DNA of 64,000 bases from Podarcis cretensis (lineage: Eukaryota). Of this stretch, positions 2,055-62,012 are shown in pieces. The notes beneath the pieces are model-generated. The model had not been told where the DNA came from, made no database searches, and saw only the letters and a list, made by a program, of their open reading frames with translations. A program made the translations under genes and the position numbers. Position 1 is the first letter of the stretch; every line of letters starts with the position of its first letter. Where the stretch lies: the NCBI GenBank assembly GCA_951804945.1, contig OX638150.1, positions 36,952,001 through 37,016,000 on the forward strand. Reading direction: 5' to 3'.

Positions 2055-3014
2055 CAGTCTTCCCATGATGGGGCTTTGTGTCAGACACTGCCCATCCTGA
2101 GGAAATGCTGTCAATGTCCTTTAATGTCAAGAGAGAAGCGCCCTGTCTTTTTAGCCCAGTAATTAAGTCTTAGGACCAGCTCTGCAAATTAATGTAATGC
2201 CTGAGCCAAAGTGGAATAGTCAAATTCTCTTGTAGTTCCTTTTGTCTAAATTGCTTGTTCTGCCAATGCATTCCTCTTTCTGTGTTTAAGGTACTTCATT
2301 GGCAAACATTCTAGTCTGGTATGATGCAATTTAAAAGCAAGAGCAACCCTGAGTGCCTACATGTTCTATAAAAAGCTGTAGTGAGGAGGCTGACAGTCAG
2401 GAACGATGGGAGCTGCAGTCCAATCATCACTGGACAGCACCACATCCCCCACCTGCACTCTATAAACGTTGCTGGCCAGAGTAGAAGTGGGGCCTGGGAA
2501 GTTGGAATGACTCCATTCCGAAAGGAAGAGGAGAACCCACCCACAGTCTACCCTCTTAAGCCATTAGGAGGGACTCTCTGCCTTTGGAGTGGGGGGGGGG
2601 GATAGGATATAAGTGGCTGGTGGCAAATACCAAGAAAAACCTAGAGGAAGTCCCAATGTGCATTAACCCATGTAAAAGAGGGTGGGGCAAGTGTCAAAGT
2701 CCTGTAGACAACTGGTTCATGACCAGGGAGGGAGGGGTCATGAACCCAACCTTCTGATTCCCAGAACCAGAACTCTGCCATTACACAGAGTGCCAGGTTT
2801 CCAGGGACAATAATTGCCAGGTGGTGCAAAGCTACTATCCTGAATTGAATTCATACCTAGTTCCTGCTTTGAGTTTCTGGTCAAGGCATCCTAGTGACTT
2901 GGAGTTGCAGTGGTTGGAACTGATCTCCACTTCAGGACTAGATGGAGAAATGTTCAGGTCTTTCCTAGGCTTTGCCAGTCGAGCTCATTTGCTCTTTCAG
3001 TGTGTAGGAGAATA

Positions 3015-3253
3015 CAGTGGTACCTTGGGTTACAGGTGCTTCAGGTTACAGATGCTTCAGGTTACAGACTCCACTAACCCAGAAATAGTACCTCGGGTTA
3101 AGAACTTTGCTTCAGGATAAGAACAGAAACCGCAAAGTGGCGTGGTGGCAGCAGGCGGCCCCATTAGCTAAAGTGGTGCTCCAGGTTAAGAACAGTTTCA
3201 GGTTAAGAACGGACCTCCAGAACGAAGTAAGTTCTTGACCCAAGGTACCACTG
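3015..3253. mobile_element. Tc1/mariner (Tigger-like) MITE
   Basis: TIRs CAGTGGTACCTTGGGT...ACCCAAGGTACCACTG, TA on both sides, internal CAGGTTA repeats. Confidence 0.88.
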
Positions 3254-4412
3254 TATTGCTGTTTTCTTGGTAGGCTGGGTGATCTGAGCTTATGACATAT
3301 TCCATCCTTGCTGTGATTTAACTTTTCTTTCACCTCTCTCGTTCTCCGGAACCAGGAGAACTGAGACTGGCAAGCACTTTTTAATTCTTCAGATGTTTAG
3401 GTGCAAGCAGATGCAATAAAAAGGTGTTAATTTCAAGGCAAACCTCATTTGAGGTTTCTAATTAATAGCACTGGCATGTTGTTTTCTTGTTCGGGGCTCC
3501 TGGAACACACCATCTGCAGCACCACTTTTATCCAAATTGTTTTTTTTTGAAGAAGTCTCTGCTACTTAAACGCAGATCCCAAATCAAATTAGAACAGCTC
3601 GCTTTCAACACCCCTTCATGAAGAAGAATGAGAATGGAACCTCTAGGTGTTCTGTAGAGTGCCTGGGCAATCCATCACTTCGCTCAGATGCAGCTACTTC
3701 TTCCTGGGTGGAAACATGACAGCAATCCCCAGGCAGCAGCAGCAACAGGGCACAGCAGGGGCTTCTGGGCCACTGAGTGGTGAAGAATGGCTGCTGTTGC
3801 ATCAAAATGAGGAGAGGGAGCTGGAGTAGAGACAGCATGTCCCCGTTCATTCATTATCCATGCTGAAATCACGACAGGATGTCAGGGGTAGTTGGCAGCG
3901 GACTACAATGACTTCAGAAGCTGCCGACAGTGCTAGAGTTTGGCCCCGACAAAGATTCCCAAATAGATGCATCTGTTGGTGCGTGGCTAGAGACGCCACA
4001 TTGTTTCCTTGGTCCTGTGCCTTTAACAGCATAAAATTGCAAGGGAAGCTTTTCTTGGCATGGAGATAAAGCGAAGAATAATGCTTAGTTCACTTGTTTA
4101 ATTTCTGCAGGTCAGACACAGGAGAAGAGCTGCATATAAAAGGGAAAGTGGTGATCCTGTGCTTGCCATGTTCATGGGAGAATTGGTAATTGTGTGGGGT
4201 TTTTTGTAAAACGTATGGAGGCATTTCAGGGCAGGGGGATGAACCATGACATATGAAGGAAATGGGGATTTACTTCTTAGCCCCCACTACAGTTCCAGTG
4301 AAGAATGGGGGCCCCACAGGTGTAATTTGCAATGGGAGAGAAGTTTTTGTTGTCACTGGCCTCTTTCAAGGTTCTGCAGCTCCTTGAAAGCTCTGAGCAC
4401 AGGTCTCTATTA

Positions 4413-4630
4413 TAGTGGTACCTCGGGTTACATACGCTTCAGGTTACAGACTCCGCTAACCCAGAAATAGTACCTCGGGTTAAGAACTTTGCTTCAGGAT
4501 GAGAACAGAAATAGTGCTCCGGCGGCACGGCGGCAGCAGGAGGCCCCATTAGCTAAAGTGGTGCTTCAGGTTAAGAACAGTTTCAGGTTAAGAATGGACC
4601 TCCGGAACGAATTAACCCAAGGTACCACTG
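4413..4630. mobile_element. Tc1/mariner (Tigger-like) MITE
   Basis: Same family as 3015-3253; TA TSD; TIR (T/C)AGTGGTACCT...AGGTACCACTG. Confidence 0.88.
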
Positions 4631-6338
4631 TAGTCTGTTGCTGTTGTTTTGTTTTATTTTTTAAAATGACAAAGTAATATACTTCTCTGTACCTGAGAAG
4701 TTCTCTGAGTCCAGCCTTATTTGATTCCCAAACTGACAACCAAATTTGGCTATTCTAGGTGGTTATCAGAGATGATGATGATGCTTTGATACACATTATA
4801 GTCACTTAGGGCTCATCCACACCCCGGTTGTCCCATGTCTGTTGTCTGTTTTTAATTTTTTGAAATGTTGGTCACATAAACTGCACACCTTATATTAGGA
4901 TCATGACTGCTTCATATTTTATTTTCCCCACACAGCAATTAATATCAGTATGACAGAGGAATGAGTGTGTGATTTTGCTGTGGCATATGAAGTGCCATTC
5001 TCCCATGAGTACACATCTCAGGAGCCGATGAGTCTCCATGAGTGAGATGTTTAAGTGTGGAACTTCCCTTTGTAGTGTTAAAAGTTAAAGTGAATTGCAT
5101 TCAAGAGTTTTAAGTCAAGTACCATATAGTTTAATTGATGGGTGGACCGGAGCCACATAGAGATTTTCTGCTTCCATGGAACTGCACTGACATTATTGAT
5201 TCCCAGCCTAGATTATGTCCCAAAGTAGGTTATACTTCACAATATCTGAACATTATTCATCAATCATGCACACGATGCAAAAGTATATGCATAAATCCTC
5301 ACATATAAAAATCTTCATTCTCCAAACATCCATGGCAGAGATATTGCTTCTATTTCCACTTTACATATTGCAGCATGCCACCTCAATCTCTGAGCGGTGC
5401 GAGATTCCAGGGGTTCCAGATGCTTAGCCAGGGTTCAATTTCCTTCAGAATGAGGGACAGCAGAGACTGTGGTGTCTTTATGATATATGGTGTATTTACA
5501 CACATATATACAACCTGAGCCTAGGAGGGACAGTTTGCAGCAAGACCCCCAAGTGGGGTCTTGTTTCTCCCATAGTCACAGCCTTGGATTCAAACAGGAC
5601 TTGGGCATGGTTCTGTCTCCTTGGCTTCCCAACCTACTTCTTCTAGCTCACATAACTCAACTCTGCCCTTTGTCTTTCTAACTATAAGTGAGTTGAGGGA
5701 GGGCCCCCCCATCTATTTGTCTTCTGGCACAGAGCCACTTTGTTACCTTAGTGTCCCATACTTAAAGGGCCATTACCTCATCCAAAGCTAGTCAGGCTAT
5801 CCCAGAAATTGAATCAGTACTGGATGCAGGAATCAGAAGGGGGCTCAGGCATACAGCCTACCCTCCCAAACCCTCCCAAAGCATAACAATATGTAGCAGT
5901 AGGCCTGAGAACAGTGCAACTTTTCAGTGGCCAGATTCAATTAATGAGTTGTGCTAGTGGAAGCCCGCATATGGATTTTTTTTCACTAGCACAGCAGGGT
6001 TTGTTTGTGTCTCCTCCTCCTCCTCCTGCATGCCCCCCCCCCCAAATGGCTCTGCATGCATTGGGGGAGCCCAGATGGAGGAGAGGGGAAATTGTTCTGT
6101 CTGGCAAGCTGAAATGCTCGTGCTGACAGAAAGATCTCCTTAAGAGTACATTGAGTTCCACCCTGAGAAACCTCTGGGTAAGGCCAAATCTCAGTTCATT
6201 GATCCACAACAGTTTTTATGAGATGCACTATTGTTTCATGTTAAAAATAATTTGGGGCTTCATCTTGAAAATTATTGCGGGATTGTCGTTTTTTCATACT
6301 TATGATGGTTCCTTAATTTCCCACTAAACCTCACTTTC

Positions 6339-6390
6339 TCCTTCCTTCCTTCCTTCCTTCCTTCCTTCCTTCCTTCCTTCCTTCCTTCCT
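6339..6390. repeat. (CCTT)n microsatellite
   Basis: Seen directly. Confidence 0.95.
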
Positions 6391-8608
6391 TTTCCCTGAG
6401 AGCTAATTCCTCAGCATTTCTTCCCCTTTGTTCTTTTCTGGCACTAAATTTCAATGCACTGGAGAGTCCATTTATCATGGGAAGCTTCTCTCTGCATTAA
6501 CATTTGGGGGCAAACTGTTGACTGCGGACATTTGGAGCCAAGGGCTGTCATACTATCTCAGACCATTTACCGATGAAAGCCATGGCACAGGAAGTTTTCT
6601 GCACAACCAGAAATGCTGAGAGCAAAGTATGCTGGGGGAGATGGGACAAGTGTGCCAGACTTGGGCTTCTTTTTCCTATGGCTGGTTATTCTGCAAGGAA
6701 AATAAATGGAAGGCGCCTTCTTCTTTTTAAATGTGCCTCTTATGTGAAATAGGAGAGTTAAGCTTATTCGTGGTTGTTTCTGTGCTGGAACAGCTTTTAC
6801 AAAGATAAGGTTACAGAATTCCTGGCATTTGGGAATAGAGATGAGAAGGCCTGAGAGAAAACCAGAAAAATGAGGATGGGGGTTGCAGAAAAATGGGGGG
6901 CGGGGTCTCCCCACCACATTTTCTGGTTTCCCCCCAAACCTTCACATCTCTAAACCAGGAATGGTGAAGCTGTGGTCCTCCAGCTGGTGATAGACTCCAG
7001 TTCTCACTGAAGAATGGTCAATGGTCAAGGAAGATGGGAGGTTTTGGTCCAAGAACATCTGAAAGGTCAGAGGTTCCCCATCCCTGATGGTCTAGGCCCA
7101 TGGTTCCCAACGTGGGGCACACGTCCCACTGGAGAGCAATTTGATTCTTAAGGGGGGGGCAATTTGAAAACGAGTTATTAACAGTGAGTGGCCTTTCAGG
7201 CTTCCTCCACGTGAATAGAGTTCATTTTTTGAAGAAAAAGTATTATACGTCATGGGAGGGAGGGCATCAAGTCCTATAGCCATGCCAAGTCTCAAATTCA
7301 GGCCCCGCCCTTACAAGAAAAGTTAAAAAATATTCATGGTGCATGTGACGTGGGTGGACTTCTGTCCAGCATGTTATGTGCTGCAATTAATTGTGAGAAG
7401 AGTACTTTCCACCCAGAAAGCTCCCTACAGGGAATAATAATAGGAATGACTTTGTCTAGTCTGGAGAAAAAAATGAGCAACAGGTGGACAGGCAGGCAAG
7501 TATGGGCACTGAAATCAACTCAAGGAACAAGTTGCTCAGACTCAGGAGCCAGAGCAGAGTTTCCACCAGAAAGATGCCTATTGGCTCTCTTGTGTCACCT
7601 GACAAGAGCTGAACTAGAAGCAACATCAAACACTGCTTTGAAACCACTCTTCACTGCCTGGTTAGGAAGGCAATTGATGCACCTTATATAAAGAGACATT
7701 TGAGACCCATGAATGAATGATACTTTATAATAGTTCAATTCCAACACATCCCTCACATTCTGTCTTTAAAAATACCTATTTTCTACCATTTGTATTTGTC
7801 ACACATTGAAGTCACTGCTTTTGACAGCGAGCTGCTAAGAATACCAGATTACACTGAGAATGTATTTAGAGTTTGTGCTGTGGAGACAATGCACAAAGCA
7901 GTAAGAGATTCATCTTTTAGTAATGCCCATTTTGTAAGAGGCAATAAAGATACAGCATCCGGTAAAGAGATAAACATGCTATAACTAAGCCAGAGTGGCA
8001 AAATTGGAGACAAGAGACAAAGCGGGAATGGGGAATTAAATTAATGTGTGCACTTTTAAAAAAAAAAAAAGATATAAAAAAAAGAGTCAACTCCCAGTCA
8101 CCTCATACTGAAAATGAGCTGCCTTGGGGAAAGATATATCTTACAGGGAGTTTTTGAAGGATGATAAATACTGTAGTCAGTCTATTATAAACTGCAGTGT
8201 GAGCTGAATCTTAATCAAGACACAGAAATATAAATCTAAAAATAATAAAGGGAAAATCAATATTGATGCTCAGGAATAAAAGTACTATATTTTTGTTAGT
8301 AAACGTGTTTAAGGTCCCAGGGAAAAAATTATTTGAGAGAACCTACAGTAATTTACTTTAATTTCAATAGCTGGCAAGCTCCCAGAACGTTTGGGTGGAA
8401 TTTATACCATTGCCACAAAACAAGCTTATATATAAACAAACAGCATTTATTACTTCACTGCTGGTAGCCTACCGAGGCACCAGAAAAATGTGCTAGCAGA
8501 CTGGGAATGCACCAATGACAGCATTTCTGTGAACTCTACTTAATATTATGGTATCATTTGATTATTAGGAAAACTCAGTACAACCTACATACAGGGACTG
8601 TATAGTTA

Positions 8609-11530: not shown

Positions 11531-13058
11531 CAGCTTTAGAATGAGCAGGGCTTTCACACTAAAGAGATTGGGGTTGTTGTTTCACATGGCCCTTTTCTTG
11601 GGCCATGTTGTGCAGCATCCCATGTTATTTGAATTTGTTTCTTAACTGATGGACTGGCAGAATGTTAATAATACTAATAATTTACAGCAAAACCCTCTAC
11701 ATATCTCAGCTTTAAATTCCTTTGGGTTTGATGGGGCTAACACCTAGGCAAATGGGCAAAGAACTGCATCTTTAATTGCTTGCCAGATATAATTTACACC
11801 TTTCATAATCTTCCCTTGGAACAGCTCTAATATCCCAGTAGAGTCTTGCCCCATGATTTTAAATAGATTGGTGTCTTTTTTTAAAAGTTCAGGATATGTA
11901 GTCGTCCCTCCCCCCCTTGGTAGCATGAGGGGCCAATGCTGGGAGTCATAAACCATCTTGAAAGGGGGGGGGGGATGTGGATCGGTTACTGCCAGAGTGT
12001 GGCCTTTAAATCAAGAGCCGGAGCCAGGAAGGTTCATAAAACCAGAGGCAGGATTTTTTTTTTAGCCTTGAGAATTGAGGTACTTTAAATTCCAGCCTTC
12101 AGGTTCAGTGATCTGTTCAAGAACAAACATAACGCTTAAATAGAAGGGACCTGAAATCAGGACACATTTTCCTGCTGAGTTAACCCAGGACAGCCCTCCT
12201 AAAGTTTTGCTCATTTATAATGACATTTTCCTGTATTTTAACAATCCAGAAAGAGAAAAGGCTTACAATCATAATGCTGCGGGAGACAGGAATTTGCTGC
12301 AATATTCACCTTCAGATACATCAATAGGAGTAGCAAAAGTAATACATTTTAATAGAAAGTCTCAACAACATAACCTTGATTTCATTCTAATTGCCCTGTT
12401 GACCTGTTTCTCATGTATCAGGCTTCCCCAGCTTAGTACCCTAAATTGGACTACAATTCTTGCCAGCCCCAGCCAGAGTGGCCATGGATCAGGAATGGTG
12501 GGAACTGTAGCCAAGAACACCTGGAGGCGATCACTTTAGAGAAGGCTGCCATGCATCTGGTCTAAGGTCTTCCCCTTGCTAAACAAATGTAGATCAAGTT
12601 TAGTCCCAGCGTTTTACCCACTACAGCTCACTGCATAATGGCCTGTGTTGGGAAAGAAACAGGGTGTGTGTGACCCCAACTGTTCTCTTTGACTGAGTAT
12701 CTCTCTTTGCCTGGAAGCCAAAGGCAGCCCTAAAATCAACATCTCAGTCCATCCTCCACGACCCTTCTCTAGGAGACACTTGTGAGCTGGTTTTCAAGGG
12801 AAGAGGGCCAATTCAGTTGTGGTACCACCACCACCTGGTCTATGGAAAGCTCTCCATAGCAAGGTCCAGCTTAAGACCTTCCTCTTAACACATTTGATGG
12901 GAAAGGGTTGGTTGATACCACCACCATGCTAATTGGTTATCCTTGATTACCTTGGGGAGGTGGCATGACCATTATTGGGGAGGTGGTATGGTTTTAGTGT
13001 ATCATGGAAACTGCTGCTGTGTTTTTAATTTTTGTATATTTCAATTGCTGTAAGATGT

Positions 13059-13883
13059 TGTCAGGGGCTCAGGAGCAGAAGCACAAGGAAGAGGGGAGAT
13101 GGAGAGCGAAGGGGAAGAATCTGAGGGCAGCGTAGGAGAAGATGACAGTGGCCCGAGAGATTCCATGAGCCTCTCCAGCGAATCGGAAGATTCACAGAAG
13201 GGGGCGCCGGTGGCCAGGGCAAGGGGGGTCCCAAGGGGGACACTCCAGAAGCAAGGGGCCAGCGGGGAATCCCAGAGCAGCAGTTGGAGATCAGGACCAG
13301 CTTCCCCACCTGAGCATAGTGGGGGGGAAGAGTCCCAGGTATCGGGGGTAGCGTCTCCCCCAGCAGGGAGAGAAGAGGAGTCAGGGCTGACCACGCCTCC
13401 ATCGGAGAGTCAGGCAACGGAGGGGAGGTCAGGTCCAGCTAGCATCCCGGAAGAGGGAAGCAGTGACAGAAGCAGTGTAACGGTCAGGAGGAAGGTCACT
13501 GGGTTGGCGCGAGAGCCAAGTTCAAAAGTACAGGTGCGCAGGGCAGCAGAGAACGAGGATTGGGAACCGGGTCCTAAAGCCCGCCGGAGACAGGGGGAGG
13601 AGTCAGGGGACTCACCGTCAGAAGAGTCCAGAAAGGGGAATGCCCCAGCGGACAGGAGGACCCAGAGGAGAAGAGAGCAGAGGAAGAGGTGGAGCAGGGC
13701 TAGAATCTTAAACTGGTGTCAGGGGGGAGGAGATTCAGACGGAACTTCGGCGGTCTAGGGTTTAAGACGTAGAGCTGCGCGCTACGGCTTTGGAATGGAA
13801 ACTGAACTTCAATAAAGACTTTTGTATATAACGACGACCTGGTGTTGGTCCTCTGTGAGCTGGGACCTTGGACAGCTCTGACA
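13059..13883 (+). mobile_element. Solo LTR of an LTR retrotransposon or ERV (family unassigned)
   Basis: Begins TGTCAG and ends CTGACA (6-bp terminal inverted repeat, TG...CA). Perfect 5-bp TSD GATGT at 13054-13058 and 13884-13888. AATAAA at 13811-13816. GC- and CpG-rich compared with the flanks. Confidence 0.88.
13099..13758 (+). CDS. Putative LTR-encoded 219-aa low-complexity protein (acidic/Ser-Pro N-terminus, Arg-rich C-terminal motif)
   Basis: Longest ORF in the window, wholly inside the LTR. ATG in GAGATGG context; frame also open back to the LTR edge (13060); AATAAA about 50 nt after the stop. No recognised homologue and no evidence of expression. Confidence 0.4.
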   Translation: MESEGEESEGSVGEDDSGPRDSMSLSSESEDSQKGAPVARARGVPRGTLQKQGASGESQSSSWRSGPASPPEHSGGEESQVSGVASPPAGREEESGLTTPPSESQATEGRSGPASIPEEGSSDRSSVTVRRKVTGLAREPSSKVQVRRAAENEDWEPGPKARRRQGEESGDSPSEESRKGNAPADRRTQRRREQRKRWSRARILNWCQGGGDSDGTSAV

Positions 13884-16800
13884 GATGTGATAATCTATTC
13901 AACCAAAATGTAGCACTAACAGAAGCAAGCACAAGGATTCCCACTGGCATAACAAAAATCTCCACCCCCTACTCCACCTTGGGACCCCCAGATCAGATTT
14001 AGGAGGGGAAAGGAGAGGGGTAGAAGGTTCATTTGCACTGCAAAAATCCTTGTGTTGATGGAACCTTAGAGATGGCCGAATACAATCCTTATACCTACAT
14101 ATCAAATGTGAAGAGAAACAGGCCAGAACAATAGGATGGGTGGCAATGCAGAGGACTGTTGTTTGTTTGTCAGAGAACAGGTCTCTTTTTCAAGTCTAGT
14201 TTTAGGAGAGGGGCCCATAATAAGAGAACGCAGGGGTCCAGAAACTGCCTATCAACAGTAAACTGAACAAGCACAGAGCTCACAGTCTTCCCCATTGTGG
14301 TGAGATGTATTGAATTATTATTTAAAATATAGAACTTACACACCCACACACACCCCAAATGCATCTTTTTGGTGATGCATCCGTGGTCACCCTGGCCTGG
14401 CAAAATTCAGCATTTGACACTGCATCAGAAAAGGCAAAGGCAAAGTGAAAATTTCCTATTATTTTCACTGAGGTTTCATAAGCAACCTGAACACACACTT
14501 GGATCACACATTTGGAATCACAACTATGCTTTCTAAAAAAAATGCATCTGCCTCATGGGAGATGGCTTGAAACATTTCTGAATGCAACTCAGCTCCTTCT
14601 GCACTCAGGACAGCTGCGATCAACATATCAATTGAAGGGCAAGGGCTGCAGAGTAATAGAGTTTTGAATTGCATTATTGCCCCGCCCCAACCCTTTAGAT
14701 TCTTCAGATAATAAGTGCAAGCCATTCAGTTGTCTTTGTCCTCTTTGTTCCTGAGAACAAAATGGACCCCCTGCTCTGCCTTCAGTAATGTAGGACTGGA
14801 GAAAGGAGAAGAGTAGCCTGCAGCTTCTGCTCCTGGGTGTAAGATGGACTCCATTATTACTAATAATTTAGCACACAACACAATCCACAAAGTGCTTTGC
14901 AATTGCTCAGCACTTTCCCCGTCAAAGCCACTCTCTGAAGTAGCCAATTACTGGCCCTGCTTCCACAAATGGAGGAGCGAAAAACTGTGAGGTAGCTATT
15001 TGCCCAGGGAAACAATAGTTGAGTTGTTGTGGTTTCTTTAAAATCCTTATTTCCATAGTGCGAGGCTGGCATTTTAGACACCGGACCACACTGGCTCCTT
15101 ATACTTACTCTGACGATAACAAGCACAACTTCAAGCCCATCCACCTCCATCCACACCACTGCACTAACCTTTCCCTGGTGTGTTATGTGATTTATGCAGG
15201 ACCCCATTCTGTCCACAAGCATAAGACTCTGATTTTAATGAGGTGCTCTATAGAAAGGAGATGGCCAGCCTTTCAGCATTCGAGCCGATTTACCTTTGGG
15301 AGTTGTGCAGGTGGTGCTTTTCAGGTCCCTACAGCTTTGCATCAAAGTTCCCTCATCTGCACAATTGTTAATGGTACAGGAACCCTAAAGTTTACAGTCT
15401 GGCCATCCTTCCTATAGAGGATGAGTCTTCTTCCTGGTGGCCTAAGCATTTCTAATGCAAAAAGGCTCATGCAACAGATGTCTTTCCCTTTAATGATTGA
15501 CTCGTTCAGCCCATTCTTTAAACCAAAGGAACTGCATAGCATGCATGTAGCAAAAGCAACATACTGAAACGCTTTGGTGATTTAGAACGATGGAGAGGCA
15601 GAAAAGTCTTTCCAGCAGGAAAGCTGCAGGCAAAACTGAGATTGGGAAGAAATTAGATTCAGATTGCACATAAAAGCAAACCTACCTAATTCGCCCTTTC
15701 TGGAACGGTACCAGAACCAAAACACAGTCATTCTTTGAAATTCACATTTCTCCAAAGGGTTGAAAATGTGAGTCCTATTTCTGGGCTGGTAAAGAATGGA
15801 GTTGTTAAGCACTTGATTGAATTTTTAAGAAAACCCTACAGCTCACATATGCATTGCTGAATAGGCTCCATCCCATCATTTCAGAATGACTGACAGTGCA
15901 GCTCTGTGTGCATCTACTCAGAACTAAGTCCATTTGAGACCAGTAGGACTTCTAGAGCTGAAGCCTTAATTATACAAATTAACAATTATCTTATTCTCCT
16001 CCTTCCCAGAGTTGCGGCCATCATAGAGCAGCAGCTAGCTGTTGTTATCTGAGATTACATGAGTTTTTAAAAAAATGGTTGGTTTCTTGACAGCTAGAAC
16101 ATCTTCTTTGTGGAGATTGCTCAGTCATTACATTTGCCAAGATCGGTGTGCTATTTATTCAAAGATTAGATCTACTCTGGCAACACTGAAATGCAGAGCA
16201 GAAATGTCACCTGGCTGCTCTTTAATTATGAAGGAAGCATCCCCCCCTATTCACCCGCTGAGAAGGATAGATGTTGTTAAGTTCTCAAAGTATTCTTTTG
16301 TGCTGTTTAAACACTAAAAAGGCCCGTGCCACCTGAAAAGACCAACAAATATATTGCAGCATGAGTTTTGTCAGCCAAAGCCACTTTAGCAGAGGCAAAA
16401 TAATACTTCTCTTTTTGTAAGGGAAGCCAAGAGACCGAGTAATGCAAGGGACAGCAGAAGGAGGTGAACTGAGCACGAATGAATGCAAGACCTAGCAAAA
16501 CCATAAGATCGTGTTTATTGTGACCCACTCCCAACCGGTTGTGCTTGTAAGCCCCTGAAGAGGCCAATTGTGTGCTGTACAAAGCCAACCAAGATCTCTA
16601 AACCTACTAAAGGACATCTTGGATATAATACAAGCTCTAGAAATCTCCATCTCCCACTCTGCTCTTTGGTGCTTTTCTTTTTTAAATCTGGATTTATTTT
16701 CAGGTGGAATGAAGGAGATTTGGTAGTCTTTTTATTCATTTTTCGGCATTTTGCCTTAAGCAAGACTCCAAACTCCCAATAACCTTTGGAATGAATCAAG

Positions 16801-61801: not shown

Positions 61802-62012
61802 CATAGCTGTCAACCTTCCCTTTTTTTGCGGGAAATTCCCTTATTCCAGCACCATTTCCCACTACTTCCTGCCGCTATCCCGGATTGTTAGTTATCCCGT
61901 AGACTGTCGCCGGGACAGGTGAGGCTGCTGATCCCTTATTTTCAAGGCTGCTGATCCCTTATTTTCAAGGCTGCTGATCCCTTATTTTCAAATCTGAAAG
62001 TTGACAGCTATG
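61802..62012. mobile_element. Non-autonomous DNA transposon with 9-bp TSD
   Basis: Perfect 13-bp TIR CATAGCTGTCAAC...GTTGACAGCTATG; TSD ggtgggcac at 61793-61801 / 62013-62021; three internal tandem 23-bp units. Confidence 0.85.

Follow-up and report, generated by a model that had tools for sequence, protein, structure and literature searches.

The long open reading frame in the solo LTR described here is the end of a Pol gene: it encodes the last 232 residues of Pol and is no ATG-started accessory gene. We consider it very probable that this LTR-encoded tail, left behind in the solo LTR, belongs to a likely disordered extension of integrase that would serve nuclear entry and target-site tethering. 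Within the window, i.e. the whole stretch of 64,000 nt (64 kb) analysed, the LTR frame is the only one of at least 170 codons. The element is 825 bp long and is bounded by TGTCAG...CTGACA ends and a GATGT duplication, and all of the coordinates that the initial annotation had given for the LTR, its TG...CA ends and its 5-bp TSD hold. The same is true of the open frame (13060–13758), the 219 aa read from ATG 13099, the strong Kozak context of that ATG and the AATAAA at 13811. Measured stop to stop the frame spans 13054–13758, with the stop TAG at 13756–13758. The flanks of this LTR matched no other fetched locus. Its features are as follows.

13054–13058 (strand not applicable): left TSD, GATGT
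13059–13883 (+): solo LTR of a self-priming Gypsy chromovirus, subfamily A (copies approx. 1.2% apart)
13059–13064 (+): 5′ att inverted repeat, the first bases of which double as Pol codons (D-V of the M-D-V junction) in 3′ LTRs
13060–13758 (+): C-terminal 232 codons of Pol and stop (integrase tail); of low complexity, with an acidic first half and a basic end and without a confident fold
13059–13736 (+): U3, coding over its full length, as placed from the self-primer position
13099–13101 (+): ATG in good Kozak context; an internal Met of Pol, missing from subfamily 8 and family C
13573–13590 (+): PKARRR, a basic motif which we take to be NLS-like, kept in six aligned tails (AKARRR in family C)
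13654–13719 (+): Arg-rich stretch and [IVL]L[NS]WC motif, with a similar motif at the end of two distant Pol tails
13707–13712 (+): TATA-like CTTAAA approx. 30 nt before the predicted start, overlapping L-N codons; function putative
13737–13747 (+): 11-nt self-primer, complementary to the PBS; predicted 5′ end of the transcript (U3/R border)
13811–13816 (+): polyadenylation signal AATAAA
13878–13883 (+): 3′ att inverted repeat, CTGACA
13884–13888 (strand not applicable): right TSD, GATGT

An antisense frame of approx. 220 codons runs over the polypurine tract (PPT) and the LTR start (window 13041–13409, minus strand; locus L031 8642–9304, minus strand) and is probably a shadow of Pol, the third positions of which it shares. 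Elsewhere in the window, 61922–61991 holds three perfect copies of a 23-bp unit.

The relationship of the frame to Pol was established from full-length copies, in which Pol reads without a frame change through the PPT and the att site, to end at LTR base 700. The order of the polyprotein is PR-RT-RNaseH-IN-SH3-chromodomain-acidic linker, followed by the PPT codons and then the LTR, and upstream of two 3′ LTRs the frame extends for 330–380 codons, into integrase sequence. Locus L096 has a gag of 377 codons and a Pol of 1591 codons stop to stop, ending at base 700 of its 3′ LTR; among 40 older A/B-type loci it alone has a complete separate Pol that reaches the LTR stop, and its gag and pol (2470–3603 and 3414–8189) overlap by approx. 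190 nt in different frames, an arrangement that suggests a programmed -1 frameshift. In the sister family C, Pol measures 1550–1556 codons in 28 of 28 full-length copies and ends inside the 3′ LTR in those mapped, and the same fusion of Pol with an LTR tail is present in UniRef P0010 (Podarcis muralis, 1498 aa). Among older copies, 20 of 42 (by manual count) carry frameshifts in G runs at most 50 nt upstream of the LTR, such that the tail would be lost, and UniRef P0011 and P0012 end out of frame upstream of the tail. As these indels affect different G runs and the youngest family has none of them, we read them as post-insertion slippage or sequencing error. No env ORF was seen.

Pfam returned RVP_2, RVT_1, RT_RNaseH, H2C2, rve and SH3_Tf2-1 in that order, and gag followed by PR-RT-RNaseH-IN is the Ty3/Gypsy arrangement, so the lizard LTR family that the initial annotation had proposed to classify by its RT is a Gypsy family, and a young one. 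A weak chromodomain follows integrase, with an E value of 4e-4 for PF00385 that is yet below the cut-off of that model; nearly all of the Foldseek matches listed for its predicted structure (pLDDT 75) are chromodomains, the best with an E value of 6e-3 and none at or below 0.001. Where HP1 has W and Y in its KWKGY stretch, R and A are found here, and the residue at what we take to be the first cage-aromatic position is N. All three aromatic cage residues that define Group I chromodomains, the H3K9me readers, are thus missing. An acidic linker of approx. 140 aa comes next, and in total approx. 375 residues follow the chromodomain, 232 of them within the LTR.

A genome search with the LTR, as the initial annotation had recommended, gave 2886 candidates, of which the 40 scored were all 99–100% identical, and the exact 24-nt A-type LTR start occurs 390 times in the genome. 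From the fetched loci 147 distinct LTRs were extracted, 71 of them solo (60 with a 5-bp TSD), 49 after a PPT and 27 classed as 5′. Most fetched copies are solo with a 5-bp TSD, and pairs flank gag-pol with PBS and PPT present, indicating that these are true LTRs and that full-length proviruses exist. They form 12 clusters that lie 6–21% apart, with family C (among the 12 or additional to them) at approx. 37%, and across families diverging by up to 37% the frame remains open in 122 of 159 LTRs. All homologues that carry names are Podarcis proteins, which points to a lacertid as the likely host. Insertions of families A and B favour A/T at position -3 (60/62), at the TSD centre (52/62) and at position +3 (61/62). 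TSD sites in AAT/TA runs (5/62) are consistent with an A/T site preference, and copies at L008, L022, L023, L029, L102, L125 and L155 lie inside (AAT)n microsatellites. Different subfamilies are nested or adjoining at L032 (3043–5037), L078, L098, L108, L126 and L173, mainly near chromosome ends. Internally deleted elements that keep both LTRs were seen at L032 (4213–9803), where the RT-RNaseH region is missing, and at G000:C1:3703865-3708177; a similar 3.5-kb LTR spacing recurs in family C, and such elements are possibly non-autonomous forms copied in trans.

Of 27 rows compared, 23 show the PBS, i.e. the 11 nt directly after the 5′ LTR, pairing over 10–12 nt with a single LTR site located 148–151 nt from the LTR end; the four exceptions include one row that is no 5′ LTR. 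The two partners covary in five variants, of which three are common, one is private and one belongs to family C, and RNA starting at the self-primer site folds with 11 nt paired to the PBS (z of -3.0, with 1 of 200 shuffles as good). This covariation marks a self-priming Gypsy chromovirus of the Tf1/sushi type, in which, according to the accessible parts of PMC4600332 and PMC6317226, a 5′ RNA segment complementary to the PBS acts as primer. From the position of the self-primer, transcription likely starts at approx. 13737 (approx. LTR base 679). Such a start would make U3 coding from end to end, with the stop approx. 20 nt into R, and would place ATG 13099, approx. 640 nt upstream, outside the LTR's own transcript. 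Only the 3′ LTR copy of U3 would then be transcribed, to be translated as the end of integrase, and a solo LTR such as that of the window would make no tail from its own promoter. Four presumed-RNA runs cover 30 of 30 LTR bins at 80% likeness, in contigs that give no start, strand or level, and none of the listed runs matching the LTR is recorded as RNA. A promoter scan of the LTR was empty, its model being bacterial and irrelevant here.

Selection on the tail was assessed with a codon model using one copy from each of eight subfamilies, LTRs entering the codon alignments only if their frame was open (122 of 159). The Pol frame gave an omega value of 0.43, with a 2ΔlnL of 47 against omega=1; the other plus-strand frames gave 1.78 and 1.34 and the antisense frames 1.61, 0.54 and 1.53, that of 0.54 being the one which shares the Pol third positions. 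By region, in seven elements, omega was 0.11 for PR, 0.06 for RT, 0.09 for RH, 0.13 for IN, 0.09 for SH3, 0.18 for the chromodomain, 0.40 for the linker and 0.44 for the LTR tail, i.e. the tail resembles the linker outside the LTR, whereas the enzymes range from 0.06 to 0.13. The neutral baseline (0.67 among 26 young A copies) falls below 1 since, for 23 of the 27 CpGs, decay at their positions is often silent; young B copies, with an omega of 0.32 and substructure, were discarded as a neutral reference. N:S ratios of 102:59 in 22 5′/3′ LTR pairs and 94:86 between subfamilies differed with p=0.048, but singleton controls were not significant (p=0.071, and p=0.31 with CpG changes removed). Of the indels common to at least three loci, all 8 inside the ORF preserve the frame (some being one event placed twice) and all 3 outside it are of ±1; private indels were in frame in 9 of 42. 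Towards family C the omega of the tail was 0.2–0.3, and amino-acid blocks are kept across families at approx. 50% identity. Taken as an omega of 0.43 against a baseline of approx. 0.67 together with the shared in-frame indels, these data indicate that the tail is kept open under moderate constraint, and in the test that the initial annotation had called for the frame does persist across subfamilies, with dN/dS below 1 and shared indels in multiples of three.

Between 85 and 91% of the tail residues are S, G, E, R, P, A, Q, D, T or K, with a net charge of -12 in the first half and +6 at the end. Its conserved blocks include SSESEDSQ.GAP and PKARR as well as a basic segment that closes with [IVL]L[NS]WC. 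Pfam assigned no family to the 219-aa ORF, and AlphaFold models from the chromodomain to the end (11 sequences) had a mean pLDDT of 40, chromodomain included, and were uninformative, so that the proposed disorder of the tail rests on its composition. An Atlas search with the chromodomain-to-end region of a homologue returned chromodomain clusters only (0.78), which is a lead only. When 1.84 billion representatives were searched, 10 proteins were found. Two distant ones among them, P0017 and P0019, display SH3, a W-keeping chromodomain, a linker, a VDV junction resembling the PPT/LTR border of the window family, and a tail of approx. 100 aa with a basic+LLCW end, their LTR borders being deduced from protein alone. 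The basic+LxW motif in two distant Pol ends was scored as well by 0 of 1000 and 4 of 1000 shuffles, and the Pol-tail architecture is probably older than these families. This LxW motif overlaps the TATA-like element and may be conserved as DNA. The basic motifs of the tail might act as an NLS or chromatin anchor, a role to which we give an even chance. In addition, an HxLxP motif is found at the chromodomain end in A, B, C and P0010. It matches the motif by which SLX4 binds TRF2, as given in the available portion of PMC4334113; a putative shelterin contact through it is only a lead, since the motif lies partly in a predicted helix and is also present in the non-telomeric family A.

Family C, with an LTR of 784 bp and a tail approx. 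50% identical, is very young, its LTR pairs being mostly identical and one of its solo-LTR sites being empty in run X19. Exact patterns found 777 of its LTR starts, 386 of which follow a PPT, leaving approx. 391 insertions. A single register of the telomeric repeat precedes 243 LTR starts, all but one of family C, and therefore approx. 242 of 391 insertions (approx. 62%, the pattern lengths differing slightly) lie in (TTAGGG)n arrays. Perfect arrays in 20 tiles, picked at chromosome ends and one interstitial site, hold family C in both orientations, the copies being separated by 72 bp to 13 kb of repeat, of which the tiles total 39 kb. If telomeric repeat totals 2 Mb, a generous assumption, the enrichment is estimated at more than thousand-fold. 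In contrast, the window family A gave 0 telomeric junctions among 390 A-type LTR starts, either because telomeres were never targeted or because copies there were lost to turnover. Older subfamilies lie within 1 Mb of chromosome ends in 8/36, 46/141, 9/21 and 6/18 cases against 2.4% expected, and A solos in only 2/40 and 4/46 (best-scoring matches, with C18 rows and second LTRs dropped and the length of C15 approximated). The fixed GTTAG/CTAAC register does not require that TTAGGG be recognised by sequence, an explanation that we weighed and set aside, as the local A/T preference common to families A and B is fitted by only one hexamer register. A/T-fitting sites are about equally dense in ordinary DNA, and the preference therefore explains the register but not the enrichment. 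Interstitial telomeric arrays with family C copies occur at G000:C2:4615994-4644613 (L186–L188, L213) and G000:C3:121.84-121.95 Mb; these copies are approx. 99.2% identical and slightly older, and one B-type solo LTR is also there.

The least secure of our proposals, with less than even odds, is that the tail and the cage-less chromodomain tether the intasome to telomeric chromatin, which would explain the presence of family C in TTAGGG arrays. As the window family has the tail and no telomeric junctions, the tail alone does not predict telomere insertion. In a wider and equally speculative picture, a lacertid chromovirus clade would have swapped H3K9me reading for a U3-encoded tail; its active member would tether to telomeric chromatin, possibly via shelterin, making arrays of 6.5-kb elements and telomere tracts, leaving older relatives in subtelomeres and being able to join chromosome ends by recombination.

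Set against the integrase extension is the view that the tail has no job. Pol would have lost its stop, U3 would stay open since stops and frameshifts harm the polyprotein or RNA, the conserved blocks would be promoter DNA, and the enrichment of family C would come from nuclear position, chromatin access or another part of the element. The low complexity, the want of a confident fold, an omega of approx. 0.4, the overlap with promoter signals and a family A without telomeric copies are all compatible with this, as is the pore-proximity model discussed for Ty1 in the accessible text of PMC7459421, e.g. with germ-cell telomeres near nuclear pores. However, amino-acid blocks are conserved as far as family C at the low omega values given above, distant Pol ends show the terminal motif again, made up of other residues, and an enrichment estimated at over thousand-fold is large for passive access. 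We regard a jobless tail as possible but on the unlikely side.

It is improbable, in our judgement, that the telomeric copies of family C descend from a small number of founders through recombination between telomeres, or that they are assembly artefacts. Telomeres do recombine, certain telomeric copies from separate chromosomes are just 2–6 sites apart, and telomeric turnover could also account for the absence of older families there. Yet when 14 telomeric and 14 other full-length copies were placed in one tree, the two groups intermingled as in shuffles, with 12 changes against a shuffled mean of 11.7, and at two chromosome ends (L203–L205 and L210–L212) the nearest copy is never the adjacent one, bar a weak L204/L205 fork. 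Most full-length copies have identical LTR pairs and their own TSD, both orientations occur, and short-read contigs of run X19, independent of this assembly, show LTR-telomere junctions at both LTR ends. These data indicate that the telomeric copies are independent insertion events. At G000:C1:27340-74813 (L180–L185, L207) the array reads TTAGGG on one side and CCCTAA on the other side of a single family C element, L207, which has mismatched flanks (GTTAG/CTAAC) and 27 kb of subtelomere-like DNA beyond it. This looks like two chromosome ends joined head to head, by recombination or mis-joining, and the mismatched flanks at such a switch count in favour of founder spread.

MMTV sag and HIV nef provide examples of long ORFs overlapping U3, as separate genes with their own mRNAs in env-bearing retroviruses, unlike the window frame, which is the end of Pol. 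The initial annotation, with such genes in mind, had offered two origins for the frame, a start at its own ATG or continuation from the internal region, and it is the continuation that stands, the tail being separated from Pol by no stop or frame change. That the tail is also made on its own, from spliced or read-through RNA beginning at ATG 13099 or at the PPT Met, seems to us a shade less probable again than founder spread. The ATG has its good Kozak context and is retained in 140 of 147 LTRs tallied, a donor-like GTAAGT follows most 5′ LTRs, and solo LTRs in host transcripts could give read-through RNA. Against this, the ATG is ACG in 4 of 4 LTRs (two elements) of subfamily 8 and ACC in family C, GTAAGT owes its constancy to primer pairing and is GTAAGC in three subfamilies, and no joint from this donor was present among the 15 listed of 44 joints from the four presumed-RNA runs, a weak test as these are contigs only.

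Finally, that the open frame is a by-product of T-poor composition and young age is refuted by its continuity with Pol, and we give it almost no weight: T makes up just 79 of the first 700 LTR bases and the median longest frame of shuffles is already 111–127 codons, but the frame is open across diverged families, with third-position bias and in-frame shared indels, and dinucleotide shuffles of the whole LTR gave an equally long frame in only 21 of 5000 cases on the plus strand (54/5000 on either strand; 58/5000 and 75/5000 respectively for the first 700 nt alone). The comparison with composition-preserving shuffles called for in the initial annotation thus shows that the frame exceeds what composition gives.

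The window family is like the Tf1/sushi elements (Tf1, Tj1 and sushi-ichi) in domain order, Tf2-1-like SH3, post-integrase chromodomain fold, 5-bp TSD and self-priming, and its provisional placement there rests on self-priming, domains and chromodomain. It differs from them in adding approx. 375 residues after the chromodomain, 232 in the LTR, and in the loss of three cage aromatics; the available part of PMC3601003, which models sushi LTRs, makes no mention of ORFs. A Pol that continues into the 3′ LTR with a putative targeting domain is described for plant CRM group A in portions of PMC3059260 and PMC3605345, and the Pol frame of Beetle and Bingo runs into the 3′ LTR as does that of the window family. 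However, CRM group A elements have plant hosts, a tRNA-Met PBS, a CR motif instead of a chromodomain and a centromeric location, whereas in the window family the PBS pairs with its own LTR, the chromodomain lies upstream of the PPT, the tail fills U3 and the sister family is telomere-biased. The resemblance is likely convergent.

In yeast-type Ty1/copia elements the steering of insertion by the integrase C-terminus, putative in our case, has parallels: a C-terminal motif of Ty5 integrase directs it to Sir4 heterochromatin near telomeres and a bipartite NLS region of Ty1 to AC40 (from parts of PMC7459421 and PMC7175516). Ty5 enters subtelomeric heterochromatin at large and not telomeric repeats, and both it and Ty1 are Ty1/copia, unlike the window family. 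Arrays of elements split by telomeric repeat tracts at chromosome ends are reported for MoTeR, FoTeR and HeT-A/TART in the accessible sections of PMC12857005 and PMC6581046. These non-LTR elements have a fixed orientation, whereas family C is an LTR element with a DDE integrase that occurs in both orientations and has approx. 40% of its insertions elsewhere. TRAS and SART are also telomere-inserting non-LTR elements.

Pol reading into the LTR is therefore already known from plant CRM. Our literature searches, with Repbase/Dfam (which may list the family) and most subscription journals outside their scope, gave no account of this family or of a vertebrate LTR element in telomeric repeats, and within that literature the telomeric sister family is a vertebrate case without precedent found and a lead worth following. 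In these elements one U3 combines the roles of predicted promoter, att end, self-primer border and integrase code, and in this vertebrate lineage selection maintains the arrangement. Hundreds of solo LTRs are liable to be called as spurious genes, P0006, P0007 and P0015 being such Podarcis predictions. Family C bears on estimates of lizard telomere structure and length and on the origin of interstitial telomeric sites, and its comparison with family A offers a natural contrast for what aims an integrase at telomeres.
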